64,000 nt of DNA from Patescibacteria group bacterium UBA926 (GCA_002293685.1 DBDS01000006.1:180909-244908), one strand, 5' to 3'; counted from the stretch's first letter, positions 6,716-63,881 are shown. The notes: generated from the letters alone by a model not told the origin. A program made the numbers and translations.

Positions 6716-8089
6716 ATGACAACTCCTCCAGAGTCAAAAACTTTCTACAACGTAATGCCTGAAGTCACTAACGGACCTGTTATAAAACCAAAGGTAGCAA
6801 CCCCGCTACCACCAACCCCTCAAGCTAAAATCTCTATCCCTCAAGCACCTTCCGCTAAAAAGAATGGCAAGAAAATTTTTCTGTTTATCGTCTTAGGAAT
6901 AATTATTCTCGGAGCTATAGGTGCGGGAATCTATTTCTTAATAGCTAAATCACCAGACCAATCTGCAAATACCGAAAATACTATTTCTGACACCACACCA
7001 GAAGTACCACCTATAGCCGATGTATCAACTCCTGCAGATTGGCTGTTGAAATATTTTGGCAATGAAACTTGTACGGAACTAGTTGTTTGCGGTGATAAAT
7101 CTGATCCAGACCGTGATGGCCTTGACAACTACTCTGAATTTATCAGTGGAACTGACCCAAATAATCCCGATACAGATGGTGATGGAATTGCCGACGGTGA
7201 CGAAGTAAATATTTTTAATACCGACCCATTACTTTCTAGAACTTTTAGAACGGGTGAGTATTCAGATTTAGAATTTATAAAAGGTGGTTACGATATCACC
7301 ACTAACGAACCTTACACCAGTCAAAAGTTAATAGAAATTAAATCTAAAATTCAACAATTCGGTTTACATCAACCAACTTTATCTTCGCTTGGCCCTCTCA
7401 GTTTCCAACTTTATGAATTTACAGATCCAAACCAACCCACACTACCTGCGGATTTAGACATGACTCCTGAAGCAAAATTAGATAGAGATAGCCAACGCCA
7501 GAGCACTATAAAAAAAATTGGTGGGGCTTTACTTAAATACAAAGATGATAAAAAATCCTATCCACCGACTGATGATTTTATTGTGATGTCCGATATGGTT
7601 CGTTCTTATAACACAGTCGCTACAAACTACAATGACCCCATTGATATTCAACCGTACAAATACGGTTACCAGTCTATCAACAATAATACTGAATTCACAT
7701 TAACTTACTACAGCGAAACTCAAAATCAATTGATTAAGTACTCTCAGAAAAACGCCGAGGACGACGCAGCAAAGGAAAATACTAAAGCTTTTGATGATCA
7801 AAGAAAACTAGATTTGGAGCGCATGCAGGAAGCATTGCTAGTGTGGTCAACGGTTCAATTAGACCCAGCTAGTGATAAAGAATTTGTATTCCCAACAGTT
7901 CAGGGACTAAAAGCTGAACTTGTACCACGTTACATGACCACCATTCCAACTGACCCAGTCACAAAGCAGGATTATCAGTATGAAGTTGGGCCTAACTTTG
8001 ATACTTTTACGATCCGGGCGGCATTGCAAAATCCAGAAGCTGGAACAACTGGTTACATGTGCAATCAGACTGAATGTAGAAATTACTAA
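6716..8089 (+). CDS. exported/membrane-anchored protein with thrombospondin type-3-like calcium-binding repeats
   Basis: N-terminal TM helix; DPDRDGLDNYSEFISGTDPNNPDTDGDGIADGDE repeats. Confidence 0.45.
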   Translation: MTTPPESKTFYNVMPEVTNGPVIKPKVATPLPPTPQAKISIPQAPSAKKNGKKIFLFIVLGIIILGAIGAGIYFLIAKSPDQSANTENTISDTTPEVPPIADVSTPADWLLKYFGNETCTELVVCGDKSDPDRDGLDNYSEFISGTDPNNPDTDGDGIADGDEVNIFNTDPLLSRTFRTGEYSDLEFIKGGYDITTNEPYTSQKLIEIKSKIQQFGLHQPTLSSLGPLSFQLYEFTDPNQPTLPADLDMTPEAKLDRDSQRQSTIKKIGGALLKYKDDKKSYPPTDDFIVMSDMVRSYNTVATNYNDPIDIQPYKYGYQSINNNTEFTLTYYSETQNQLIKYSQKNAEDDAAKENTKAFDDQRKLDLERMQEALLVWSTVQLDPASDKEFVFPTVQGLKAELVPRYMTTIPTDPVTKQDYQYEVGPNFDTFTIRAALQNPEAGTTGYMCNQTECRNY

Positions 8090-9688: not shown

Positions 9689-10321
9689 ATGAATCAGAAG
9701 AAGTTAATCACTGTTTTATCTATTGCTATCCTCGCACTCATAGTAGTGGGTTATACTTATTGGAATAATTCCAACAATAACAAGCTAGCAGAGCAGTCAC
9801 TTACGGATATATTTCCGAATAGTAATACAGTGGACAATAACAGCGCTCCTCTAAAATCATTGAACACAAACACTCAACAATCCTCCAACTCAAACCCAGC
9901 CCAAAGAGACGAGACCGCTAGCTGGAAAATTTATACTAGCTCTCAATATGGATACACAATCAAGTATCCAGAAAACTTCTCCATACAAACAGGCAGTAGC
10001 GGTCCCGGAGGTACAATCTTTACATTGGCTATTAACTCTGAACCTGTTAATACAGAAGGCGCGGGTCAGTCAAAATATCTTTGGATCGGGGTTGAGCCAA
10101 AACGCACATTATCACAATGTGAAAACTCAGAAGGCAAAATCACTATTGATGGCTACTCGGTGGAAAAATGCATCGAGCAAGGTTCATTCTTTGGACAAGG
10201 CAAAGGCATGCTAGCTAGTATCAATCACGGTAATTACTCTTATTTTTTTAGCGCAGACTACTACGACAAAAATAGTGCCACTGTAGACAAAATTATCGCT
10301 ACTTTCAGATTCATAAAATAA
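9689..10321 (+). CDS. hypothetical exported protein
   Basis: N-terminal signal/anchor helix, Asn/Ser-rich linker. Confidence 0.4.
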   Translation: MNQKKLITVLSIAILALIVVGYTYWNNSNNNKLAEQSLTDIFPNSNTVDNNSAPLKSLNTNTQQSSNSNPAQRDETASWKIYTSSQYGYTIKYPENFSIQTGSSGPGGTIFTLAINSEPVNTEGAGQSKYLWIGVEPKRTLSQCENSEGKITIDGYSVEKCIEQGSFFGQGKGMLASINHGNYSYFFSADYYDKNSATVDKIIATFRFIK

Positions 10322-10338
10322 ATCTAATTCCATACTGA

Positions 10339-10365
10339 AACCCGCTAAAACAAGCGGGTTTTTCT
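10339..10365 (+). terminator. rho-independent terminator
   Basis: aaacccgct aaaacaa gcgggttttt. Confidence 0.65.
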
Positions 10366-10455
10366 GTGTAAAAGTAGTGGTTTAGTAAGGAATAATTTGC
10401 TATAATTTAGGTAGTTATTTAGCCACTATTTTGGCTAATTTTTAAGTAAATTCAG

Positions 10456-12600
<2,145 letters not shown>

Positions 12601-21434: not shown

Positions 21435-22112
21435 ATGATTGAATTCAAAAAAGTTACCAAATACTATAACAACCATAAGGCACTCAACAATATAAACCTC
21501 CATGTTAAGCAGGGAGAGTTTATTTCGTTAGTAGGCATGAGCGGGGCAGGGAAGTCCACGATGCTCAAGCTTTTGGTTGGTGAAGAACAACTGGACGACG
21601 GAAGCATCCTTATCGACGATATCGATATGACTAAAATCCGTAAATCGGATTTGCCATACTTACGACGCAAAATTGGAGTTGTCTTTCAAGATATTAAACT
21701 TTTACCTAAACGAACCGCGTTTGAAAACGTTGCTTTCGCGATGGAAGTATCTGGTCACACCAAAGAACAAATCAACAAAGATGTACCGCGCATTCTAGAA
21801 CTTGTAGGCCTAACTCACAAAACTCACAACTTCCCACATGAAATGAGCGGTGGAGAAAAACAGCGTGTTGCCATTGCGCGTAGTTTGGCTCATCGGCCGG
21901 TTTTGCTTTTGGCAGATGAACCTACCGGCAACTTAGACGAAATCAACGCAGCCGAAGTAATCGACTTACTACTTAAAATCAACGAACTAGGAACAACAGT
22001 ACTTCTCGCAACTCACGCCTCCGACCTAGTAAACAAAATCAAGAAACGCGTAATCACAATTGAAGGCGGACAGATTACAATGGAACAAGAAAAAGGTAAG
22101 TACAAATTATAA
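21435..22112 (+). CDS. ftsE: cell division ATP-binding protein FtsE
   Basis: ABC ATPase motifs GMSGAGKST, LSGGEKQR, LLLADEPTGNLD. Confidence 0.85.
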   Translation: MIEFKKVTKYYNNHKALNNINLHVKQGEFISLVGMSGAGKSTMLKLLVGEEQLDDGSILIDDIDMTKIRKSDLPYLRRKIGVVFQDIKLLPKRTAFENVAFAMEVSGHTKEQINKDVPRILELVGLTHKTHNFPHEMSGGEKQRVAIARSLAHRPVLLLADEPTGNLDEINAAEVIDLLLKINELGTTVLLATHASDLVNKIKKRVITIEGGQITMEQEKGKYKL

Positions 22113-22115
22113 ACC

Positions 22116-23033
22116 ATGAAATTTTTCATCTCACTGCTACGAATTATAAAAAGCGGAGTAATGAACCTGCGCCGAAACATTTGGTTGGCAGCAGCTTCAA
22201 CTTTGATCATGACCATCACATTGATTATTCTCTCTGTGATGACGTTGCTATTTATAATTACTAGTTACAGTGTTCAATCAATTCAAGAACGAGTAGATAT
22301 TAGTACTTACTTCAAAAGTGATGTTTCAGAAGCGCGAATTTTAGTTATTCGTGATGAACTTCAGGGAGATTCAAGAATTGCAAGTGTAAATTATGTCTCT
22401 AGCGCAGAAGCAAGACAAAACTTTGAGGAGAATAATCGAGACGACCAACTAATCATTGATTCGCTCAACGAACTTACAGACAATCCATTTCCTTCTACAT
22501 TACAAATCAAAGCCAACAATCTAGAAGACTATCCAGCAATCGCTAATATGTTAGAAGAAAGCAGTTACCGAGATTTAATTCAAGAAATCAACTTTGAAGA
22601 TAACCGCATAATTATTGAAAGATTAAATTCACTTCTAACTTTCATTATCACTTTTGGGCTAATCCTCATGGTTGTATTCTGTTTGATTGCAATTTTGGTG
22701 ATTTTCAATACTATTGCGCTTACCATTTATAATCGCAGGGAAGAGGTTGAAATCATGCGTCTGGTTGGTGCGACCAATTGGTACATCCGTGGTCCGTTCT
22801 TAGTAGAAGCTTTAACATATAGCGTAATTGCAGCCATTATAACTAGTGCCTTAATCTTGCCAATTTACTTCCAAATGCTTCCAAAAATCAGCAATTATCT
22901 AACTCCGGGAGCTAATATTTTCTCTGGAGATATTAAGATATTCTTGGGTGTGATCGTAGTTCAGCTAATAATCGCCTTTATCTTAAGCGCTATTTCCAGC
23001 TTATTAGCTATGCGCAAATATCTTCGCATTTAA
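22116..23033 (+). CDS. ftsX: cell division permease FtsX
   Basis: TM-loop-3TM topology downstream of ftsE. Confidence 0.75.
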   Translation: MKFFISLLRIIKSGVMNLRRNIWLAAASTLIMTITLIILSVMTLLFIITSYSVQSIQERVDISTYFKSDVSEARILVIRDELQGDSRIASVNYVSSAEARQNFEENNRDDQLIIDSLNELTDNPFPSTLQIKANNLEDYPAIANMLEESSYRDLIQEINFEDNRIIIERLNSLLTFIITFGLILMVVFCLIAILVIFNTIALTIYNRREEVEIMRLVGATNWYIRGPFLVEALTYSVIAAIITSALILPIYFQMLPKISNYLTPGANIFSGDIKIFLGVIVVQLIIAFILSAISSLLAMRKYLRI

Positions 23034-29558: not shown

Positions 29559-29765
29559 ATGCAAAGAAAACCAGGCGAAACCCCTGAACAACTAAGGCAA
29601 AGAATTCATGAAATTTATCCCGATCTAACTGAAGTCGAAACAGAAGTTATGCTGGTAGGCTTAATCGGTACGAGGATCGACCAACATGGACGCATCTTAG
29701 GCCCTAAACTTACTCATCATTATGACGAGGATGCAAACCCTGTAAAAGGTACTAAGGTACCTTAA
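29559..29765 (+). CDS. hypothetical small protein
   Basis: AGGAGG RBS; ORF only. Confidence 0.3.
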   Translation: MQRKPGETPEQLRQRIHEIYPDLTEVETEVMLVGLIGTRIDQHGRILGPKLTHHYDEDANPVKGTKVP

Positions 29766-30007
29766 CCTACGTAGTAAAGATCTAAATTGATTCTTTGCTA
29801 CTTTTTTTATATGACGACCGTCAATCAAATAACAAGTATCCTTAAGTGGAGAGTGTATAATAATCAGAAGTAGAATTATATGTAGGTCAGGGCAATATAA
29901 TGAAAAGAGATAGAGAATAACGCAAAATTCAAATCATACTACGGACATTGAACAATATACATAGGGGAGCATGTGTTTTGAGATTAACACCGTGTCGCAC
30001 AATGTAT

Positions 30008-30155
30008 GTTCTACGACATGCACATGCATGTCGTAGAACATCCGTCATATTTTGCGACAAATTTTTTGTCGCAAAATATGACAATCATCGCGCCGCTCAA
30101 TTTCATGACTATCACTTCCACCGTCTATGCATCAGGAAATAAATTCCTGATGCAT
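30008..30155. repeat. three consecutive perfect inverted repeats (13-bp, 15-bp and 12-bp stems) in a convergent intergenic region
   Basis: gttctacgacatg/catgtcgtagaac; atattttgcgacaaa/tttgtcgcaaaatat; atgcatcaggaa/ttcctgatgcat. Confidence 0.7.
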
Positions 30156-30226
30156 GGACTTAAACTCAACTTATAAATATTCTAAGGTAGTGCTCTCCCC
30201 TCCTTATAGGTAGGGGATTCGCAAAT

Positions 30227-30261
30227 CAAAAAAACCGCCCAAGGCGGTTTTGAATTTTCAC
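30227..30261. terminator. bidirectional terminator
   Basis: aaaaaaaccgcc caa ggcggttttgaatttt. Confidence 0.65.
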
Positions 30262-30282
30262 GACACTTTCTCCCCTCTTAAA

Positions 30283-31281
30283 CTAAAAACATTTTCCTTG
30301 CTCTTTAGGATGACATGAAAAGTGCATATAATCTTTCAAGCTTCTCCACTCTCCACCCCAACCAAAGCCTGCAGCTTTAAAAGTTCTAACAACTGTACCA
30401 TTAATGGGTAAAGATAATAGATCACACCCCGTAGACGGGCAAGGTCTCCAATAGTCACCAACTCGTTTATTTCCTTTTATATAATAATTTTGTTTCCAGT
30501 TAATATCAAAGGTTAATCCGAATGAATGAGTTGATAACTTAGAGCTACCCACTGCTTGTCTCCAAGTAAAACTTCCCAGATCATTAATTGGTGGCTTTTC
30601 TGGACTATCATAAATTTGCTGAAACACAGCTTTTACTTTCTGCTCCAGACATCGCTGAACTGTTACATTATACTGTGTTGGAGATTTTGTATTACCAGAA
30701 AGTTTCCAAGCAGGTACAGAAAAAGTTACCATGTTGGCACGGGCTTCTGACTCAGAAGCAAAGGTACTTTTACAACCACTACTACTAGGCATATCAGCGC
30801 TATCATAGAAATCACCTGCTAAACAACCAGAACCAAAACCCACCTCTTCACAACCTGGGATGGGTTCTGCGTCAAAAATCGGTGGCTGGATCGGTTTAAA
30901 AGCGACGAGCGACGGATTAATAAAGTACAATAACATATAGCTTCCGCCCAGTATCGCAATACCAACTAAAGAGTTCATCAAAATTGATTTGGCTTTTCCT
31001 TTGCCAGTCTCCCCGCTTGTAATATATAAATAACCAGCCAAGACCAAGAAGAAAACCAAGACCAACGCACCGGCACTTAAACTAAATCGGTAAAGTCGAT
31101 TTATACATCGCTCTAAATCTTTTCCATCAGCCGGTTCACTCGGTGTGCACAAATAATCTTTCAAACTCGAATCAACGCCACTATAAGTTGGCAGTGCATT
31201 TGTCTCTTGTGCAAATACAAAAACAGGGTTGAGCGCAACCAAGACAAATCCGATTATAACCAGTATCTTTATAAACTTCAT
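30283..31281 (-). CDS. exported protein: conserved N-terminal signal-peptide + double-TM Cys module fused to peptidase M15 (VanY/LAS-like) domain
   Basis: STHSFGLTFDI (SxHxxGxAxD) and DYMHF (DxxH) zinc motifs; N-terminal module paralogous to 32527-33654. Confidence 0.6.
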   Translation of the reverse strand: MKFIKILVIIGFVLVALNPVFVFAQETNALPTYSGVDSSLKDYLCTPSEPADGKDLERCINRLYRFSLSAGALVLVFFLVLAGYLYITSGETGKGKAKSILMNSLVGIAILGGSYMLLYFINPSLVAFKPIQPPIFDAEPIPGCEEVGFGSGCLAGDFYDSADMPSSSGCKSTFASESEARANMVTFSVPAWKLSGNTKSPTQYNVTVQRCLEQKVKAVFQQIYDSPEKPPINDLGSFTWRQAVGSSKLSTHSFGLTFDINWKQNYYIKGNKRVGDYWRPCPSTGCDLLSLPINGTVVRTFKAAGFGWGGEWRSLKDYMHFSCHPKEQGKCF

Positions 31282-32024
31282 TTAGCTAATTCAGTTTCAA
31301 TAACTTGCTGGTAAGTTTCCCACGGGAGTACGCCTTCAAACTTAAGACCATTTATAAATACTGTAGGTGTCGAGCCAACTCCGTAATTCACTCCTTGATT
31401 AGTCAAGTCTTCTACAATTGGTTTATTTATCCTAGCATCAAAGCATTCAGAAAAAGAGGTCGCATTAAGTCCAGTATTTTGAGCAATCTGTTTTAAAGAT
31501 GTGTCACTCAAGGGATTATCAGTTTCAGAAGCTTGGGCTACAAACAAAGCGTCATGGTACTCCCAAAATTTTCCTTGCGCGCTGGAGCACATCGCAGCTT
31601 CAGCTGCCTTGAAAGACTCTTCGCCCAAGAAAGCGAAGTCCCAAAACGCAAACTTAATTTTCCCGGTGTCAATGTATTCAGATTTCAATTTAGAAAAAAT
31701 ATCAAAGTGCCACTGCGCGCAATATGGACATTGATAGTCAGCAAATTCTATTACCGTTACTTTCGCATCATCACTTCCAAGCCTCGGTACACTTTCTGGA
31801 ATTTGAATATCGATCGGTGAATTAATCCCCTGCTCTTGCAAACCTGAGCCAGCAAACTGAGTACCTTGTTTAGATATTTCATTAGCTATTAACCAGCCAG
31901 CGCCCAAGATAGCCATGCCGATTAACCAGGCTGCGATTAAAATAGTGACTATCCAGGGCATTAAGTTCTGCTGTTTTTTAGCCTGATTTCCAGCTTCAGC
32001 TTCTAATTCATTCTGTTCCGTCAT
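31278..32024 (-). CDS. membrane-anchored DsbA-like thiol:disulfide oxidoreductase
   Basis: TM anchor then thioredoxin fold with CPYC active site. Confidence 0.7.
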   Translation of the reverse strand: MTEQNELEAEAGNQAKKQQNLMPWIVTILIAAWLIGMAILGAGWLIANEISKQGTQFAGSGLQEQGINSPIDIQIPESVPRLGSDDAKVTVIEFADYQCPYCAQWHFDIFSKLKSEYIDTGKIKFAFWDFAFLGEESFKAAEAAMCSSAQGKFWEYHDALFVAQASETDNPLSDTSLKQIAQNTGLNATSFSECFDARINKPIVEDLTNQGVNYGVGSTPTVFINGLKFEGVLPWETYQQVIETELAK

Positions 32025-32542
32025 AAATCTCCAATATTTACTGCGCCTGGACAGGTACTTAAACCATAATTAATCTCACCACCAGGCCTAAATTCATCAG
32101 CTATTTCCGTTTGTGTATAGACCTCAATAGGAAGTTTACAAATTTCCGAGCCTGCTCCTAAAAGATTCCCCAAAACCTGTTCAGCTTTAGCTCTAGATCC
32201 AGAATACGGCTGTGACAATAAAATAACCTCAATAAAATCACCCTGTATTACATATGAAATTGAAAATTCTGTTGCTGAGTGCAATACCATAACCTCTTCA
32301 TCTTGACGAATTATATTCTCGAAAATATTATTTATTCTAACTGGTCCAGATGAAGTATTCCATACGATTCCAGAATCACTTTGCTCCTTCACATCTGCAC
32401 CTTCAAAATTTGCAACCTGAAGTGACCCTACGGTGGAGGTACTTCTAAAAAACAAATAAACCAATATCAACACAACTGAAAGACTCAGAATTATCGCTCC
32501 TATTAGAATATATTTTTTTTCTATGATCATGATGATGGACAA
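32021..32542 (-). CDS. hypothetical membrane-anchored protein
   Basis: N-terminal TM; ORF only. Confidence 0.35.
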   Translation of the reverse strand: MSIIMIIEKKYILIGAIILSLSVVLILVYLFFRSTSTVGSLQVANFEGADVKEQSDSGIVWNTSSGPVRINNIFENIIRQDEEVMVLHSATEFSISYVIQGDFIEVILLSQPYSGSRAKAEQVLGNLLGAGSEICKLPIEVYTQTEIADEFRPGGEINYGLSTCPGAVNIGDL

Positions 32543-33654
32543 GCCTTAAATTCATTATACCAACGCGAGACAGTCACAACATAGTTACGAGTCTGCATGT
32601 AACCATTAATATTGGTTGAGCATACAGTCTTAGAACTATTAGTAAAAGGGCATTCCCACACTCTGAGACCCGAACAAATCGAACTCGGACCCTGGCTCTT
32701 TCTACCAGGTCCAGCATTGTATGCTGAGATAACGTATTTCGTGGAAGAATTCACAGCTGTATTTCGTAGTAGAGTCGCTAAATATTTTGTACCGCAATCA
32801 ATATTTTTCACCCCGTCAGTTTGCCAGCCAGATTGGCATCCAATTGACCTAGCTGTCTCCGTCTTAATCTGCATCAAACCATGACAACACCCAGTCCAGC
32901 TGGTAATTACTTCTCTCCAACCACTTTCTTTTTGAATTATGGCTTTAATCAAAGCCTGGTCCACACCATATCGTTGTGAAGCAGCGCTGATTGCTGCCTG
33001 ATATCTGGACTCTATTGCGCACTTCGCTCTAGTGCTTGCCAACTTGTCATCTCCTAAACTACAACTAACACCATTACCCTGAATCATTTGTCCAGAAGCT
33101 ACATTCACATTTCCTGTACTCACTTGCCCCGCACTTGGTCCAGTCGAAATAATACACCTTGCACTAAAGCCAATGGCTTCACAGCTCGGTAAATCCTGCG
33201 TGCTAAAAATCGGCGGTTGAATTGGTCGAATTTGAGTGAGCGTTGGGTTTATAAAGTTCAGCAACACAAAACTTCCAAGCAAGATTCCCATTCCAGTCAC
33301 AGCAGAAAGCAAAATATTTTTCGCCTTCCCCTTCCCCGCTTCCCCACTTGTAATATACAAATATCCTGCTAAAACTAAAAAGAAAATTAACGCGATAGCC
33401 CCGGCTGAGATTCCGAATCGATATAATCTACCGACACAATCTAGGAGATCTGTCCCCTGCCCTTTTGGGGTACACAAAAATGCTTCTATGCTTTCATCAA
33501 CACCGGAATATGTTGGCAAAGCAGTTGGTGCATCTGTTGGTTGCAATGGTCCGTGATTATCTGCCAACGCCATTGGCGCTAAAAAACCCGCTGCTATTGT
33601 GAGAAATACTGCAGTTAAGAATAAAGCACGGGCTTTTAGAATTATTGAGTACAT
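32527..33654 (-). CDS. exported protein: same N-terminal signal-peptide + double-TM Cys module fused to lytic transglycosylase (SLT) domain
   Basis: AIIQKESGW...GLMQI...AYNAGPG SLT motifs; N-terminal 150 aa paralogous to 30283-31281. Confidence 0.6.
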   Translation of the reverse strand: MYSIILKARALFLTAVFLTIAAGFLAPMALADNHGPLQPTDAPTALPTYSGVDESIEAFLCTPKGQGTDLLDCVGRLYRFGISAGAIALIFFLVLAGYLYITSGEAGKGKAKNILLSAVTGMGILLGSFVLLNFINPTLTQIRPIQPPIFSTQDLPSCEAIGFSARCIISTGPSAGQVSTGNVNVASGQMIQGNGVSCSLGDDKLASTRAKCAIESRYQAAISAASQRYGVDQALIKAIIQKESGWREVITSWTGCCHGLMQIKTETARSIGCQSGWQTDGVKNIDCGTKYLATLLRNTAVNSSTKYVISAYNAGPGRKSQGPSSICSGLRVWECPFTNSSKTVCSTNINGYMQTRNYVVTVSRWYNEFKACPSS

Positions 33655-33721
33655 TTTGTTTTTGATTTCATTTGCAGAATTTCGGCACAGTATTTTGTTG
33701 GTCGAACGAGGAAGTGCTGCA

Positions 33722-35053
33722 TTACCTACTCAAGAAGTTCATCGGATTATATGTTACTCCAGATGGTACAGAATACGGTCCATAAACAGCCGAATGCTGA
33801 CCTGGGGTTACAGAATAACCGTTACAATCAAATACCGTGAAGTGAAGATGGTAACCACGTTCTGGTCCATAAAGCAAGCGAGTTGTGTTTCCGGTGTTAC
33901 CCTCGTAACCAACTAAGTCGCCACGCTTCACACTTTGACCACCGGCAACTTTGATGGTTCGCATATGAGCATACAACGTTATTACACATCTATCTGCTCC
34001 AGAACTAGATTTAATGTTATGACGAATCGTACACCAATTTCCGTAAGCCGCTTCACCTGTATCACACTTTGCCACAGTTCCATCTGCTGCTGCATAAATC
34101 GGTTTTCCCGCAGGGGCGGCTATATCGATACCGTTGTGGAAATTATAACCAAGCGCTCGAAAACCAGTGTTACCATAACCTTGCGTTAATACACCATCCA
34201 TTGGCCATCCCATCACACCTTTATTAACCGAAATTGTAGTATTACCAGCTTTTGCGCGAGCAGCTGCATCGAGCGAATCAATTTCTTCCATGATTTTATT
34301 TTGCTCATTACGGCTCGCAGACAATAACCGCTGATAATTTCCTTCGACTCCTTTAGTTTCCGCTAATAAGCGTTCTTTATTCTGACGCTCTGACTCTAAA
34401 CTTGTTTGAGTGATACTCAACTCTTCCTTAAGTGACTCTAATTTAGCAAGTGAAACTTTTAAGTCCTGTTGTTGAATAACTAACTTTTCCTTAATCTCCT
34501 TAATTCGAGACATTAATGTATAAACCTGATCATTAACACTGCGGACGTATTGAATTTGGTCTAAGAAACTTGAAAAGTCGTCCGTTCCCAAACTGATTTG
34601 AAGAAAAGTATTATTTTCTAACTTAGACATTTGAACAATCAGCTGCGCTAAAATTTTTCGGTTTTCATCGATTTCTTTTTCACGACGTTCAATCTGAATT
34701 TCTAACTCATTGATTTGAAGAGAGGTATCTTCACGCTGAGTATCATTTGCTTCAATTTGCAATTCCAATGAACGAATTTGATTATCATAAATCTTCATTT
34801 CGTTCTGCAAGCTGGCGGCTTGGTTTCGAGTCTGACTGATTTGAGTTTGATAAGAATTAATCTGGCTTTGAATCTGTTGCAATCTTAAATCTAAACGAGC
34901 GCGGTCGTTATTTTGAGCTTGAACAATGCTTGTAGATTGAGTATTGAAAAAATAAAAAACAGCTAGTCCTAAGACAGCTAAAAGACCCGCAAAAACAGCG
35001 GATATAATAACAATTCGTTTGATAATGTTTGTTTCAAATAAAGGTTTATCCAT
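33722..35053 (-). CDS. peptidase M23 (LytM-type) with N-terminal TM and long coiled coil (EnvC-like)
   Basis: HNGIDIAAPAG...HLHF M23 motifs; heptad-rich central region. Confidence 0.75.
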   Translation of the reverse strand: MDKPLFETNIIKRIVIISAVFAGLLAVLGLAVFYFFNTQSTSIVQAQNNDRARLDLRLQQIQSQINSYQTQISQTRNQAASLQNEMKIYDNQIRSLELQIEANDTQREDTSLQINELEIQIERREKEIDENRKILAQLIVQMSKLENNTFLQISLGTDDFSSFLDQIQYVRSVNDQVYTLMSRIKEIKEKLVIQQQDLKVSLAKLESLKEELSITQTSLESERQNKERLLAETKGVEGNYQRLLSASRNEQNKIMEEIDSLDAAARAKAGNTTISVNKGVMGWPMDGVLTQGYGNTGFRALGYNFHNGIDIAAPAGKPIYAAADGTVAKCDTGEAAYGNWCTIRHNIKSSSGADRCVITLYAHMRTIKVAGGQSVKRGDLVGYEGNTGNTTRLLYGPERGYHLHFTVFDCNGYSVTPGQHSAVYGPYSVPSGVTYNPMNFLSR

Positions 35054-37053: not shown

Positions 37054-38373
37054 CTATGCGGATTTTTTAAGGTATTCAGACAGCTCTTTTAAAACGTTTT
37101 CGGCGTGATGCTTACGTTCGGGTGCAATTCGCTGCAGCACATCTTTAACTGAAAGCCATTCATATTCTTCAAACTCACGACCATCTACTACTATCTCGGA
37201 ATTATCACCAAAGAATCTAAACAGTACGGTTTGTTGAGTTTGTCCATTGTAAGGTCGTTGATTAAAGACAACAGGTCGATTACCATGCAGCCATTCATAA
37301 GAATTTAAAAAGTTAGAAGTTAACAGTGGCTTTACGGAAGTGATTCCAGTTTCTTCTTCAAGTTCTCTTGCAGCTGCAGAAAGCAACTCTTCACCTTCGT
37401 CAATTCCGCCTTGAGGGAACTGCCAATAATTATCTAAGAATACTCGGCTTTGGCCATTCTTTGGTGGCGCGACAATTCGTTTAAACAACAAAATTTTATT
37501 ATCTTCATTCACTACAACAGCTACAGCGTTCGAACGAAACGGATACGATTTAAACACTTTGTAACGAATGAGTGAAACTATCAATCCGATTGTCGCTCGA
37601 TAAATTCGTGGGACCCGACGCGGCTGAGTGAATAATCGAAACAACCATTCGAGCCCAATCCTTCGTACAAACTTTGGCGGACGAAGCTTATTACCTGCTG
37701 CATAATCAAAAGTACCTCCAACACCCATAGCCATTTTCACAGGCAAATCTTTTAAGTGCTCTGCTATCCAACGCTCTTGTTTAATATTACCGTAGCCAAC
37801 AAATAGCATATCAGGCGAAACTTCTGCGATATCTACTTTAACACTCTGATCGTCAATTTTTTTATTTGAGACACCAGCAATTTTGAGTTTTGGATATTTT
37901 ATCTTTAGTAACTCGGCTGTTTTCTGAGCAGAATCACTCCAGTCATTTAATAGAAAGACTGAGAAGTTTTCTTTCTCGGCAAGTGCGCATAAATCAAAAA
38001 ACACCTCTGCTCCCACAATTTTTTCGGGGATATTTTGGTATAAGTAACTTGGAGTTAATAAAATTCGTGCGCCAGTTATAATCGCACCAAACCATGCTTC
38101 AACGATTTTTCCATAGTGAGATTTCGCTGCAAGAGGTTTGCTTAAAAAGCGTTCGGCCCAAAAAATTCCAATCCCATCAGCAATAGCAATATCCGCTTTG
38201 GCTAATAAGTCACGTACTTCCCCACTTCTCAAAGCGGCGTATAAAAATTCAGAGTAAGGTGTGGTGACAAAAGTTTGTTCATCACTAGAGACTCGTCGTT
38301 TTACCTCAGCCAAAAATTCCGCTTTGGAAATAGCGGAAATTTTGATCGGACCAATTGTAATTGGTTTATACAT
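37054..38373 (-). CDS. WecB/TagA/CpsF-family glycosyltransferase fused to C-terminal NUDIX hydrolase
   Basis: GLEWLFRLFTQPRR TagA signature; Nudix box GGIDEGEELLSAAARELEEETGI. Confidence 0.6.
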   Translation of the reverse strand: MYKPITIGPIKISAISKAEFLAEVKRRVSSDEQTFVTTPYSEFLYAALRSGEVRDLLAKADIAIADGIGIFWAERFLSKPLAAKSHYGKIVEAWFGAIITGARILLTPSYLYQNIPEKIVGAEVFFDLCALAEKENFSVFLLNDWSDSAQKTAELLKIKYPKLKIAGVSNKKIDDQSVKVDIAEVSPDMLFVGYGNIKQERWIAEHLKDLPVKMAMGVGGTFDYAAGNKLRPPKFVRRIGLEWLFRLFTQPRRVPRIYRATIGLIVSLIRYKVFKSYPFRSNAVAVVVNEDNKILLFKRIVAPPKNGQSRVFLDNYWQFPQGGIDEGEELLSAAARELEEETGITSVKPLLTSNFLNSYEWLHGNRPVVFNQRPYNGQTQQTVLFRFFGDNSEIVVDGREFEEYEWLSVKDVLQRIAPERKHHAENVLKELSEYLKKSA

Positions 38374-39220
38374 TTTTTTCTAAACACTCATTAAATGAAC
38401 TAACCTGATTATTATATGAATTGACCAGAGATTTTGTGGATTCAATTAGACTATTGAGTTCGTTGGCCAATTCATTATATTCCTGTACAGCTTCATTATA
38501 TGCCTGCCGCGATGAATATTGATTTCTATCAACTTGTTGCTTTTTAGTCTGTAATTCTGCTTCAAGTCGAGCTATCCTATCTCGATTTCCATCGATGCGA
38601 ATCTTTAGGTTAGGCTCTGGAGTTGGACAGTTGGATAACGGTGAACCGAATTCCTGAACAGCCATCCAAACTTCTTTGCCTTCAAACATCCCTTTACCAA
38701 CCGCAACGCCAATCTCATTAAATTTAATATCCAAAATATTTGCACGATGACCTGGGCTATCCATCCAAGCCTGAACTAATATTTCATCATTGCGATAATT
38801 ACCTAAAGCTAAGTTTTCACCCACTACCAAGAAATCATAACCCGCGGCTTTAATTACATCGGCTGGAGTCTTCCCATCTGGAGATTCATGTTCAAAATAC
38901 TGTTGACGAAACATATCATCTAATTTTGCCTTAGCAGCCAAATTCAATTTTTCATTTGTACGAAGTGGAACAAGACCATTTTGTTCGCGTTGCTTATTCG
39001 TCTCTACGACCACACCTTCTTGGGTTAAATCACTTAGAGCTGCCTCAAGCGGTCCAAGTAATGGACCTGGTAGTGATTCAGGCAAATTAACCTTGGATAA
39101 TAACCCTGCAAACTGATTATCACTTTTAATCCACTCAACAGCTCGTTGAGGCATGCCTTCCATTACAGCAACCAGCAAAAACCCCCCTAATAATATCCCT
39201 GCAAACAATTTATTCTTCAT
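38366..39220 (-). CDS. CAP/SCP (YkwD-like) domain secreted protein with C-terminal coiled coil
   Basis: DSPGHRANILDIKFNEIGVA motif; start at MKNK (ATG 39218-39220). Confidence 0.55.
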   Translation of the reverse strand: MKNKLFAGILLGGFLLVAVMEGMPQRAVEWIKSDNQFAGLLSKVNLPESLPGPLLGPLEAALSDLTQEGVVVETNKQREQNGLVPLRTNEKLNLAAKAKLDDMFRQQYFEHESPDGKTPADVIKAAGYDFLVVGENLALGNYRNDEILVQAWMDSPGHRANILDIKFNEIGVAVGKGMFEGKEVWMAVQEFGSPLSNCPTPEPNLKIRIDGNRDRIARLEAELQTKKQQVDRNQYSSRQAYNEAVQEYNELANELNSLIESTKSLVNSYNNQVSSFNECLEKNV

Positions 39221-39278
39221 AATCAACAGTATAGCAAAATATGTAGATTTTTCTAGTAATTTTCGATATAATGCCCTC

Positions 39279-39551
39279 ATGGATTCGCTCAAAAACCTCA
39301 CCGATAAGAAGCGTTTTCCGGCCAAACGAAACCCTAAGCTTCACTCTGCCAATCATGTACTGGCCGATGAACTCGCCGCAAAACTTAACGACCCGAAGCA
39401 TTTCGGTTTCTATTTACGAATGGCAGGTACTATTCCCCATCCTGTACTGCAAAGATTAGCTGGTCAAGTTTTAGAAAATCCGAAAGTGGATAACAAAGGG
39501 CGACTATTCGCTTACTTAATTAAAAAATATAACGAAGAGTCCAAAAAGTAA
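39279..39551 (+). CDS. hypothetical small protein
   Basis: ORF only; longer form would overlap CAP gene. Confidence 0.25.
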   Translation: MDSLKNLTDKKRFPAKRNPKLHSANHVLADELAAKLNDPKHFGFYLRMAGTIPHPVLQRLAGQVLENPKVDNKGRLFAYLIKKYNEESKK

Positions 39552-60737: not shown

Positions 60738-63700
60738 CTAGTCAGCTTTAGCGATTGAAAGTTTTGGAAGAATAATAATTCCCAAAATTGCAATGAAGCT
60801 AAATACTATTGATAACGGAGTTCCAGTTCTTGGAAGAGTTGTAACTTCTCCTAGAACTTGAGGATTCTCGTATGGAAGACCAGTAGAATCACCAGCTACA
60901 CGACCTTCATCTGGATTTGGAATTCGTGTTCCAGAGGAGCCACCGCCACCCGGGTTTCCACCACGGTCAGTTGGGTAGTTACCGAAATCTAGACCAGAGA
61001 CAGTGTAAACAATTTCAGCATGAGCAGTCTTGATTAAGCCATCCCAGAAACTAACATCTTCACCACTAGGGACTAGCTCAACCAAACCGTTTACTGCACC
61101 GGGACATGTTTCAAAAGGAACGCCCAAAGCTACAATGTACTCATTAGGAGCAGGAACTGGTTCTGTGATTTCCCAACCAGACTGCAAAACTTCACGAACA
61201 GTATGACAACCGGCTGGAAGGTTTAGAAGTTCATAATTTCCATTCACATCACTAGCACCAGATGGTTCTTCACCATCCAAAGAATCGTTGTTGTTTAAGT
61301 CGATGTATGCGATCCAGTTTTCGAGACCTAGATCAGGATCCTCGACATCATAATCACCATCATTATTTACATCATGGTAGATAGCACCCCTAATATTGTA
61401 ACCGTTTGGTTCAGTTGGGGTATCATCCTCACTGTTAACAAAATTGTATGGACCTTTGATGCCGTCAATTTGTTTATCTAAGGTCACCGAATGAAAACCT
61501 TCTGGAGAAACCTGAGTCCAACCGCTTTGATTTACTTCACGAACTTGGTAAGTACCAGTCGGTAAGTTAGCAAAAAAGTAGTTGCCTTCTGAATCTGTTA
61601 CGTCATAAGGTTCGCCATCATCTAGCGCGCCATTTTGATTCAAATCAACATAGATTGTCCAGCCAGAAGCATTGGCTTCTGTGTTTTGAACTTGCTTCTG
61701 TCCATAAATTCCATTACCACAAGTCGGCAATCCATCTTTCTTAATCAACCCGAGAATGAAGCCAATTAACTTTCCAAACTTAGAATCATACTTAAAGTCT
61801 TTTACAGTACATACCGGGTAGTTTCCAAAATCTTTATTCTTATGGTTCTTACCTGCGTCTAGAGTGTGAACAATGGTATTTGGAGCGCTTTGCATCCAAC
61901 CAGTTTTATGTTCTTCAGCAATTACTAACTCGCCTTCTAAGCCAGTGATATCAAATTCGTATTGACCCCAAATATTTGTATAATCAACATCAAGAATTTC
62001 ATAAATAGTAACTTCTAGTTCACCTGTATTGTTTGAACCAAAGGTGTCGTAAATCTGGAAGTCAGCTGGAGTTCCATCACCTGTGATTGTTGTCCAATAA
62101 GTGTGAGCAGAATTATACATTCCCCAATTTGGTGAAGAACCATCGATTTGAAGATCTAAGAGAGTTGGGCCGTAAACTTCATAGTTCTGAACTAAGTCAG
62201 TCCAGTAACCACTACTATTACGTTCTGAGTACTGAGCATCTGCTTCTATTCCATCACCGGCATCAAATGTACCAGTAACCTTCACCATGTAATCAACTGT
62301 GCTTGTTAAAGCACTAGAGCTCACTACTGGAGTATTCAAGGCAGTAACGTCAAAAGTTTCGACTTGCTTCATTAGATAAATCTTCCAGTTCCAGATTCCG
62401 TGTTCGAAGATTCCATTCTTTTTGCCGTTCTTGTTTAAATCTTTGTATTTCATACCAGAAACTTTAAATTCTGGTTCATTACAAAGCACAAGACTGACCT
62501 GAACTCCATCTACATCATAACCGTCAGTAGCATTATTGAATTTAGAGCTTGTCTTATCAGAAACATCTGTAAGTTTGATGTACTTGGCGTACTGAACAGC
62601 ACCCATTTCAACATTACGTTGTGTCTGGAAGTAGTCACCCAAATCTGTCCAAGGACCCGCCATAGACATAGCTACTTTAACATTCACCTTCTCAGGATAA
62701 TTTGCATCGGAAGGGCTACCAAAGCTTGTTTCAACAAGTTTAATATCTGTACCAGGAACATTTTGGAAGACTCCACCGAAAGATAGAATGATGCTTCCAC
62801 CGAATCCAAGGGATACAAAGTTAAGAGTATCGTTATCTTCTGCTTCGCCAAGAGCTTTGGTAGGGTCGCTACGTTCAGCTAACACAGGAGTCACTACTGG
62901 ATTCTTTTGATTTCCCTGTTTAAATTCATGATAAGCAGTAGCCCAAGCAGGACCATCTTTACAAGGCTCTGGTTCGCAAGCAGTTGTACACTTGTTTACT
63001 AAGGTGAATTTGGTGGTCTGAGCATTTACTTCTTTTTCACCGGCACCAGAGACATATTCCCAACCTTCCTTCATGATTTCATCTAAGTAGTAATCACCAA
63101 AAGGAACATTCTTAATAGTTACACAACCGTTCTCACCAGTTGTTCCCTTATAGATTGGAAAAATATCTACGGTTAGGAAACCAGAATTATCGCCGTAGTA
63201 GCTATCTAAAATCCTGAAGTCAATTTCATCACCGGCTATTAAAGTCTTGCTGGATGAATATTTATGGTTTACTAAATTCAACGGACCCCAGTTTGGATTC
63301 ACTCCGTCTACTTGAATTCCTAAGTAACCAGCCCATTCACCTGGCAAAGAATTTACATTGATCCAAGGGTTCTCGGCTGTCGCACCGAATTCTCCTGGTT
63401 CACGCTTTGTATAACCAGCATCACTGATGTCACCTGAACTTCCCGGTCGATAAACGTAAGTTCCGCTTGCTTCCAAAACATAATCACCAGCAGGTAACAC
63501 ATCAGAAGAATAAATAGTTCCATCCGGGTAAACCTTAACTGAATCAACTTCTTCACCCTTCAAGAATACTTCCCAACCTGGTAGAGGTTGCTGGGTTTTA
63601 TAATCAATCTTACATACTTCAATATCGGTCGCACAGTCTTCTTTAACAGAAACGTCATCTAAGAAACCGCCGAAAGAATCTCCAGGACCCACATCTTCAA

Positions 63701-63881
63701 ACTGGACTCGTGTTGTGGTCGAGCTTGCGATAAAGCTAAATGTGTATTCTGTCCAAACTGTTGCATCACCAGAATTCGGGATCGCTGTGGAATTCACAGT
63801 AACATCAAGATCACCTGCAGTTACTTTAATTGCATTGTTTGCAGCAACCTGACCTGGACGTGGGGATGCAGCGAAAGTCAA
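60738..63881 (-). CDS. large cell-surface protein with Cna-B/SdrD-B-like repeats and C-terminal LPRTG sorting signal (TTG start, N-terminus uncertain)
   Basis: C-terminal LPRTG + hydrophobic helix + KLSIAKAD tail; repeated GxYxV-E...GW modules. Confidence 0.6.
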   Translation of the reverse strand: MTFAASPRPGQVAANNAIKVTAGDLDVTVNSTAIPNSGDATVWTEYTFSFIASSTTTRVQFEDVGPGDSFGGFLDDVSVKEDCATDIEVCKIDYKTQQPLPGWEVFLKGEEVDSVKVYPDGTIYSSDVLPAGDYVLEASGTYVYRPGSSGDISDAGYTKREPGEFGATAENPWINVNSLPGEWAGYLGIQVDGVNPNWGPLNLVNHKYSSSKTLIAGDEIDFRILDSYYGDNSGFLTVDIFPIYKGTTGENGCVTIKNVPFGDYYLDEIMKEGWEYVSGAGEKEVNAQTTKFTLVNKCTTACEPEPCKDGPAWATAYHEFKQGNQKNPVVTPVLAERSDPTKALGEAEDNDTLNFVSLGFGGSIILSFGGVFQNVPGTDIKLVETSFGSPSDANYPEKVNVKVAMSMAGPWTDLGDYFQTQRNVEMGAVQYAKYIKLTDVSDKTSSKFNNATDGYDVDGVQVSLVLCNEPEFKVSGMKYKDLNKNGKKNGIFEHGIWNWKIYLMKQVETFDVTALNTPVVSSSALTSTVDYMVKVTGTFDAGDGIEADAQYSERNSSGYWTDLVQNYEVYGPTLLDLQIDGSSPNWGMYNSAHTYWTTITGDGTPADFQIYDTFGSNNTGELEVTIYEILDVDYTNIWGQYEFDITGLEGELVIAEEHKTGWMQSAPNTIVHTLDAGKNHKNKDFGNYPVCTVKDFKYDSKFGKLIGFILGLIKKDGLPTCGNGIYGQKQVQNTEANASGWTIYVDLNQNGALDDGEPYDVTDSEGNYFFANLPTGTYQVREVNQSGWTQVSPEGFHSVTLDKQIDGIKGPYNFVNSEDDTPTEPNGYNIRGAIYHDVNNDGDYDVEDPDLGLENWIAYIDLNNNDSLDGEEPSGASDVNGNYELLNLPAGCHTVREVLQSGWEITEPVPAPNEYIVALGVPFETCPGAVNGLVELVPSGEDVSFWDGLIKTAHAEIVYTVSGLDFGNYPTDRGGNPGGGGSSGTRIPNPDEGRVAGDSTGLPYENPQVLGEVTTLPRTGTPLSIVFSFIAILGIIILPKLSIAKAD

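Follow-up and report, generated by a model that had tools for sequence, protein, structure and literature searches.

Predicted VirB2-like membrane hairpins carry exchangeable peptidoglycan hydrolase heads in a Patescibacteria operon

What does a bacterium do with peptidoglycan hydrolases that are built onto a pilin-like membrane hairpin and whose catalytic domains differ between near-identical strains? The question is raised by five consecutive minus-strand genes (positions 30283-35053) in a 64,000-nucleotide stretch of DNA from the ultrasmall Patescibacteria group bacterium UBA926 (GCA_002293685.1 DBDS01000006.1:180909-244908), the whole of which we refer to as the window. Patescibacteria account for a large share of bacterial diversity, and the cultivated ones live attached to host cells. 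A sequence-only reading of the window had described the five genes as encoding, in order, a fusion protein with an M15 (VanY/LAS) peptidase domain, a DsbA-like oxidoreductase, a small membrane protein, a fusion protein with an SLT lytic-transglycosylase domain and a coiled-coil M23 peptidase; all five open reading frames are found there, and their families are as claimed. We show by sequence comparison that four of these genes form an operon encoding two predicted peptidoglycan hydrolases, both exported and both anchored by a hairpin on a VirB2-like scaffold. The N-terminal modules behave as vertically inherited, position-specific scaffolds, and the enzyme heads as cassettes that are exchanged between strains and species.

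The two fusion proteins, here called fusion 1 and fusion 2, share one architecture, and all coordinates given for the cluster refer to the minus strand. Fusion 1 (32527-33654, 375 residues) consists of a signal peptide with predicted cleavage after ALA at residue 31, an N-terminal module (N-module, residues 45-170, 33145-33522), a Gly/Ser linker and an SLT catalytic domain (residues 222-320, 32695-32991; Pfam SLT, E 9.4e-18). The SLT head contains 10 cysteines and the motifs QKES, GLMQI and AYNAG, as read from the sequence; fusion 1 thus has the SLT/lysozyme-like domain with a catalytic glutamate that defines VirB1-type enzymes. Fusion 2 (30283-31281, 332 residues) has a signal peptide with predicted cleavage after VFA at residue 24, the N-module (residues 29-155, 30817-31197), a linker and an M15_4 (VanY/LAS) head (residues 245-322, 30316-30549; Peptidase_M15_4, E 2e-17). 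Between the two lie the small membrane protein (32021-32530, 169 residues from the ATG at 32530) and the DsbA-like thiol oxidoreductase (31278-32024, 248 residues; Thioredoxin_4, E 8.7e-38; DSBA, E 2.3e-16), whose CPYC motif and N-terminal transmembrane (TM) helix, both read from the sequence, are those of a membrane-anchored CxxC protein of the thioredoxin fold. Read from an upstream TTG, the small-protein frame would span 32021-32542 (173 residues); a public contig that is 99.97% identical annotates the ATG start. Four-nucleotide ATGA overlaps join fusion 1 to the small protein, the small protein to DsbA and DsbA to fusion 2, and a terminator-like hairpin of the intrinsic type (30231-30251; 9-bp stem with 5 GC pairs, T-rich tail) begins at 30251, 32 nucleotides past the fusion-2 stop codon, and marks the operon end. 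Fusion 1, the small protein, DsbA and fusion 2 are therefore a translationally coupled operon. The gene for the M23 (LytM-type) coiled-coil peptidase (33722-35053, 443 residues; Peptidase_M23, E 2e-23) lies 67 nucleotides upstream of fusion 1.

What, then, is the module that the two fusions share? They had been described as paralogous only at their N-termini, and the alignment agrees: 76 of 127 positions are identical (60%, E 2e-52), nothing significant is found beyond, and tblastn detects exactly two copies of the module in the window. From N- to C-terminus it comprises an ectodomain Cys loop (LCTP...C), a first helix (TM1), a basic loop (SGEAGKGKAK), a second helix (TM2), an NP..L motif, the PIQPPIF segment and a second Cys loop (C..GF...C). 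All the motifs quoted in the sequence-only reading (ALPTYSGVD, LCTP, RLYRF, GYLYITSGE.GKGKAK, PIQPPIF and C..GF...C) can be found, and across relatives most of them show no or almost no variation. Such relatives are abundant. Word-indexed homolog searches gave 4, 8 and 3 matches, and an exhaustive search of an N-module profile against 1.84 billion representatives was used instead; it returned 12,709 proteins at E<=1e-3, of which 83 reached E<=1e-30, so the module is conserved well outside this genome and is no private anchor. Nearly all of the best 150 relatives are 300-800 residues long with the module at the N-terminus.

The guess that the module resembles VirB2/TrbC pilins is borne out at the level of sequence families. 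Both window copies match PF18895 (T4SS_pilin; T4SS, type IV secretion system), with 24.8 bits (E 2.3e-5) for fusion 2 and 18.2 bits (E 2.6e-3) for fusion 1 against a gathering score of 26.6; 71 of 124 relatives match this family at E<=1e-3 (best E 9.8e-28), six of the 124 match TrbC/VirB2, and the close homolog P0004 carries a precomputed PF18895 match. In the AlphaFold model of the module, a short helix precedes a long helix-turn-helix hairpin (helices 38-71 and 74-104 of the modelled segment) with a predicted local distance difference test score of about 90. The cleavable signal peptide, the two hydrophobic helices and the short positive loop of PF18895 are all present; the proteins that carry them (332 and 375 residues in the window, 300-800 among relatives) exceed the ~100-185 residues of a stand-alone pilin. 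The structural half of the comparison gave less: a Foldseek search of the model against the PDB found no match at E<=0.001, and the N-module profile searched against PDB sequences gave chance matches only, to farnesyl diphosphate synthase. The module had been called novel, a description that the existence of PF18895 does not allow; on profile evidence it is a divergent and unusually well-conserved branch of PF18895 and no new family. Across species its orthologs are 55-70% identical, compared with 60% between the two paralogs.

Two other identities for the module were rejected, that of a type IV pilus pilin because there is neither a class III signal nor a prepilin-peptidase motif, and that of a holin or signal-arrest-release endolysin because there is no phage context. 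The likely topology, following the positive-inside rule, would place the Cys-loop ectodomain outside after cleavage of the signal peptide, the short basic loop in the cytoplasm and the second Cys pair outside again. The chain would re-emerge after TM2, so the enzyme head should lie outside on a flexible linker. Two unusual arrangements were seen among relatives. In a more distant locus (L025), a headless, stand-alone pilin of 179 residues (10001-10540) directly follows the M23 gene and precedes a 336-residue pilin fusion; it may represent an ancestral or a degenerate state of the scaffold. In the 767-residue metagenomic protein P0010 the module is internal (residues 282-406), behind a secreted N-terminal domain of ~250 residues without an assigned family, and the hairpin can therefore bear extracellular domains at both ends. 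One further match, P0093 (18 repeats), is repetitive and was dismissed as spurious.

The heads behind this scaffold fall into ~10 clusters across loci. Pfam assigns SLT (11 relatives), Peptidase_M15 (8), M23 (7), C39_2 (6), M15_4 (4), VanY and GDSL (3 each) and Amidase_2, CHAP and SLT_3 (2 each). The commonest head without a Pfam family (cluster 0) has a conserved H...D...H pattern, and its profile matches the N-domain of Sonic hedgehog in the PDB (E 2.7e-5), which identifies it as a predicted bacterial Hedgehog/LAS-type zinc peptidase domain. This is also the commonest fusion-2 head (L001:9962-10858 and ~23 other loci), and it sometimes precedes a second domain of ~200 residues for which no family was identified. 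Another Pfam-less head (cluster 2) carries an invariant ES...G..Q motif typical of lysozyme-like enzymes; its profile found nothing significant in the PDB. Some loci encode a third fusion with a GDSL/SGNH esterase head (L004:12065-13195, L020:12218-13378), and the scaffold therefore goes beyond glycosidases and peptidases; peptidoglycan de-O-acetylase and lipase are candidate roles for this head. The identifiable heads are of types predicted to act on peptidoglycan, and the GDSL and C39-like ones are hydrolases that could plausibly act on the cell wall. In the window, the SLT head is expected to cut the glycan strand and the LAS-type (VanY/M15) head the peptide part. A phage origin finds no backing among 2.9 million viral contigs, in which no relative was found; the SLT head has only generic similarity (30-42%) to transglycosylases of plasmids, of the MltC type and of phage tape-measure proteins.

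How firmly is a given head tied to its scaffold? Related loci were collected from a one-genome-per-species scan (22 loci), from protein look-ups and from a metagenome scan with the M23 protein. Matches of the metagenome scan were at most 70% identical, so it added breadth and no further strain-level alleles. The sister strain L001 (GCA_022842405.1) is conspecific with the window: flanking DNA is 96-98% identical (89-98% in the blastn segments beside cassette 1), M23 99.5-100%, DsbA 98% and the N-modules 92-97%. Within this near-identity stand two blocks of exchange. Cassette 1 (32075-33117), which has no nucleotide similarity by blastn, covers the fusion-1 head and most of the small-protein gene; L001 has a lysozyme-like head where the window has SLT. 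Cassette 2 (30259-30831) covers the fusion-2 head, M15_4 in the window and Hedgehog/LAS-type in L001. The heads of the two strains are unalignable, at 23-28% identity (28% for the fusion-1 head), and the small proteins are 34% identical. Between species the converse is seen: the SLT heads of L028 and L015 are 82-85% identical to that of the window, although the flanking proteins there are only 49-70% identical (M23 70%, DsbA 49-59%). Head types are polyphyletic on the M23 tree, whereas the N-module tree groups by gene position and species without regard to head type. Taken together, the swap in L001, the transfer of the SLT head and the tree patterns mean that the scaffold is inherited vertically and that heads move by recombination in the linker. 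This cassette behaviour, seen in ~45 syntenic loci, appears to be undescribed so far.

The head does not travel alone. In 19 of 19 loci, the family of the small protein matches the type of the fusion-1 head, over several independent switches on the tree. The small protein belongs to no Pfam family; it has a TM anchor with its N-terminus inside and a beta-rich ectodomain with two conserved cysteines, in a structural model of low confidence. We propose that it is a cognate partner, and possibly an inhibitor, of the fusion-1 head. DsbA tracks the cysteine content of the same head, being present in 10 of 10 loci with fusion-1 heads of 10-12 cysteines and absent from all nine with a 2-Cys SLT head. 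The suggestion that DsbA serves the many conserved cysteines is thereby supported. DsbA does not accompany the module throughout: it goes with Cys-rich heads, and the module occurs without it in the nine 2-Cys loci. What moves as one unit is thus the head together with its small partner and, if the head requires it, DsbA.

A conserved N-terminal region followed by unrelated C-terminal domains in close relatives, which is what we find between the window and L001, is also the pattern of polymorphic toxins. The N-module could accordingly be a delivery domain, the heads antibacterial toxins aimed at competitors and the small protein the immunity protein. The match between the downstream gene and the type of the fusion-1 head, seen in 19 of 19 loci, and the horizontal movement of the cassettes would both fit. 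Several features of the system do not. There are ~10 head families where dozens are typical; orphan heads or orphan small-protein genes are absent from the window, nor did we notice any on the gene maps of related loci; fusion 2 and fusion 3 have no partner gene that could confer immunity; and the gene is core, not accessory, in its lineage. All heads would target peptidoglycan, with no nuclease, deaminase or pore-former among them, and the main cellular partner of an obligate epibiont is its host. We therefore regard toxin-immunity pairs directed at competitors as very improbable.

Does the pilin kinship tie the fusions to a T4SS? The window between 22021 and 39435 is 99.97% identical to contig DMCB01000003.1 of GCA_003446815.1, a 0.61-Mb genome of the GTDB class Doudnabacteria (Patescibacteria) that is listed as VirB4-positive (Table S1 of PMC12102498). 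At the locus itself, no companion genes were found for the association with type IV secretion that had been suggested: no VirB4, VirD4 or VirB6 gene is recognizable by size or domains in the window, whose other genes are housekeeping, and no T4SS gene lies within 6-10 kb in the ~45 related loci. The fusions are thus neither near virB4, virB6 or prgI, as PF18895 pilins are, nor inside a T4SS cluster, as VirB1-type enzymes are. We infer the link in large part from another member of the phylum. In Southlakia epibionticum (S. epibionticum), the essential T4SS cluster encodes a lysozyme-like protein and an M15B-like peptidase (SEML1_0006/0007) beside VirB4, together with six stand-alone PF18895 pilins (SEML1_0014-0019; Wang 2023, Table S2), and VirB2-like pilins are essential for its epibiotic growth (PMC10633639). 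Both enzyme classes of that cluster recur in the window as fusion partners of the pilin module, a Rosetta-stone type of argument.

These observations would also suit enzymes that act at home, with the pilin module bringing the hydrolases to the site of T4SS assembly, there to open the producer's own peptidoglycan for the channel or pilus, as PrgK, TraG of pIP501 and CwlT do in Gram-positive conjugation systems. In its favour are the membership of the N-module in a pilin family, the VirB4-positive genome and the pairing of a glycosidase with a peptidase, which mirrors the two-domain VirB1-like enzymes of Gram-positive bacteria as well as SEML1_0006/0007. Moreover, few VirB1 homologs are otherwise seen near virB4 in this phylum (PMC12102498). 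The fusions are, however, encoded apart from T4SS genes, and an unchanging own wall gives no reason to swap heads within or across species, which leaves this role improbable.

A different own-wall role is suggested by the neighbouring M23 gene. In its product, an N-terminal TM helix and a coiled coil of ~220 residues precede an M23 domain (residues 305-413) with intact catalytic motifs, HxxxD (HNGID) and HxH (HLH), unlike E. coli EnvC. In ~30 distant Patescibacteria loci (L076-L108) homologs directly follow ftsE-ftsX, with no pilin gene behind them; in the window ftsE/ftsX lie at 21435-23033, 10 kb away, the M23 gene having been relocated behind gltX in this lineage. With a TM segment, a coiled coil, a C-terminal hydrolase domain and ftsEX linkage in relatives, it has every feature of the FtsEX-EnvC/PcsB/CwlO type. 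The M23 protein is thus a division hydrolase that partners FtsEX; the pilin fusions next to it were added in this lineage and have no counterpart in known FtsEX systems. A place in a standard division or cell-wall operon of close relatives had been named as grounds for rejecting the proposal, and the M23 gene, which probably stands outside the variable system, goes part of the way towards it. Wherever an M23 ortholog of at least ~42% identity is found, the gene order is CAP - WecG/NUDIX - GltX - M23 - [pilin fusion] - ... - NifS, with one to three fusions per locus and at least one in essentially every such genome, as for a core gene. In the inner clade a small protein of 146-181 residues follows the first fusion, and DsbA is variably present. 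The CAP/SCP-domain protein (38366-39325, minus strand), which is secreted and has a C-terminal coiled coil, bounds the syntenic block on the left and is conserved in all relatives.

Could the fusions then be autolysins of the producer's own wall? The pilin-derived hairpin would be an exapted anchor, the fusions a housekeeping transglycosylase and endopeptidase working with the FtsEX-M23 protein, and the small protein a restraint on the transglycosylase. The site right after the M23 gene is kept in nearly all of the loci just described, the surrounding genes are housekeeping and syntenic, and no T4SS gene is near. Strong conservation of the N-module would be expected of a partner of conserved machinery, and a tethered enzyme on a short linker should, from its geometry, reach only the wall of its producer. 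The adjacency is weak evidence of a functional link, since the entire 20-kb neighbourhood is syntenic housekeeping DNA, whatever its function. Both heads are replaced by unrelated families while M23 and DsbA stay nearly identical, and heads have crossed species. In loci that have just one fusion, the head at this position is a peptidase in some and a glycosidase in others, which argues against one fixed step of wall metabolism, as a defined step should keep its chemistry. Nor does a plain anchor need an invariant Cys-loop ectodomain or a GY.Y...GE..K.KAK hairpin. The suggestion in the sequence-only reading that this is not a housekeeping set therefore has the setting against it and the head swaps between near-identical strains for it, and these swaps are the strongest argument against a plain housekeeping set.

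The reading that we favour, tentatively and with alternatives in mind, is that of pilin-guided, outward-directed wall-cutting enzymes with a cognate inhibitor. The pilin module would recruit the enzymes to the T4SS or pilus machinery, either within the membrane pool of pilins or as minor subunits of the filament. At the site of contact with the host bacterium they would cut a path through the peptidoglycan, a VirB1 function in effect fused onto a VirB2-like carrier, and heads would be swapped to suit different target walls. The small protein would be the cognate inhibitor that guards the producer's own glycan strands, and such a guard may be dispensable for the peptidase heads if these act only on foreign peptide cross-links. 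We prefer this reading because the scaffold is homologous to the pilins on which the epibiotic growth of S. epibionticum depends, because the T4SS cluster of that organism holds enzymes of the same classes, because the exchange of heads fits a variable target and not a fixed step on the own wall, and because the genome is VirB4-positive.

A number of observations weigh against outward-directed, pilin-guided enzymes. The strongest are that T4SS linkage is absent, that the site beside a division hydrolase is constant and that the module is highly conserved; together they keep an autolytic role on the producer's own wall in play, as a possible though less probable explanation. Close relatives of the module all sit after gltX-M23 and never beside T4SS genes, and the division-type M23 neighbour makes action on the own wall plausible. 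Pilin arrays described for Patescibacteria average 25% identity (PMC12102498), far below the conservation of the N-module, and both window proteins miss the gathering score of PF18895. A two-helix hairpin is undiscriminating, so the Foldseek and PDB searches confirm no more than a helical hairpin. Fusion 2 has no adjoining partner gene. Subunits of F and T pili are tightly packed, an arrangement into which a bulky C-terminal domain on every subunit would not easily fit. Secretion, pilus formation and enzymatic specificity are predictions from sequence here. In a bolder form, which we consider unlikely, the fusions would be minor or tip subunits of a T4SS-type pilus of an episymbiont. Through them the filament would present exchangeable warheads that cut peptidoglycan and so drill through the host wall, and strains would trade each warhead, with its cognate inhibitor and its folding catalyst, as a cassette that sets the host range. 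If true, this conjugative-type pilus would be the first that is armed with enzymes, and it would give the essential T4SS of Patescibacteria a concrete function.

Each component of the system belongs to a known kind, and the system combines three of them: the T4SS pilin family, T4SS-associated wall hydrolases and polymorphic effector-partner cassettes. With the PF18895 pilins of Patescibacteria the fusions share the signal peptide, the two hydrophobic helices, the short basic loop, similarity at the level of hidden Markov models, the phylum and the VirB4-positive genomes. Those pilins are stand-alone proteins of 100-185 residues, usually in arrays near virB4 and with ~25% identity between members (PMC12102498), whereas the module described here is the N-terminal third of enzymes of 300-800 residues, has extra Cys loops and the PIQPPIF segment, and lies away from virB4 in every locus seen. 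PrgK of pCF10, TraG of pIP501, CwlT of ICEBs1 and SEML1_0006/0007 likewise combine glycan and peptide cutting at the membrane, where they open peptidoglycan for a secretion machine. In enzymes of the PrgK/TraG/CwlT type, a plain TM anchor holds a single chain with both activities, and the gene lies within a T4SS cluster; the fusions differ in their pilin-like anchor, in the distribution of the activities over separate paralogous scaffolds, in their distance from T4SS genes and in their exchangeable heads. The effector pairs of type VI secretion systems (Tae/Tge-Tai/Tgi) and of the Xanthomonadales X-T4SS (effector XAC2609 with inhibitor XAC2610) resemble the operon in a conserved N-terminal part with swappable C-terminal enzymes, in mobile cassettes and in a co-varying downstream gene for an envelope protein. 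Their carriers are soluble recognition domains (XVIPCD, PAAR, LXG, Rhs) in place of a membrane-integral pilin hairpin, and in the operon a partner gene accompanies glycosidase heads only, at a core chromosomal site with few alleles.

The function of the T4SS and VirB2-like pilins of Patescibacteria, both essential in the single species that has been tested, has been called "completely unknown" (PMC11665869). Surveys treat VirB2-like pilins of the phylum as small stand-alone proteins and VirB1 homologs as separate and rarely linked (PMC12102498 and PMC12857230), and VirB1 homologs are described as rarely near virB4 (PMC12102498). The passages of these two papers that contain fusion-related terms do not mention pilin-hydrolase fusions, and a search of full-text literature, which did not cover subscription journals, found nothing further. 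The fusion family joins pilins, and through them the T4SS, directly to the breaching of a wall and supplies testable candidates for that step; the fusions may also explain why VirB1 homologs seem to be lacking near virB4 in the phylum. Strain-variable cassettes of head, partner and DsbA offer a natural marker of host specificity in metagenomes as well as enzyme-inhibitor pairs to characterise. Should the fusions instead prove to be autolysins, a pilin fold would have been reused as a conserved scaffold for division enzymes with an unusually fast turnover of heads.

A few further features of the window may be recorded. At ~29600-30300 the genes converge, with plus-strand genes to the left and minus-strand genes to the right, and the GC skew changes from ~0 to ~-0.16; the variable hydrolase operon ends exactly there, and the switch may mark the replication terminus. 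No tRNA gene and, at gathering threshold, no Rfam family was found in the 64 kb. Two proteins are likely surface or adhesin proteins of the epibiont: one of 1047 residues with SpaA and CarboxypepD_reg-type Ig-like repeats (60738-63881, minus strand) and one of 457 residues with a bacterial TSP3 repeat (6716-8089, plus strand).

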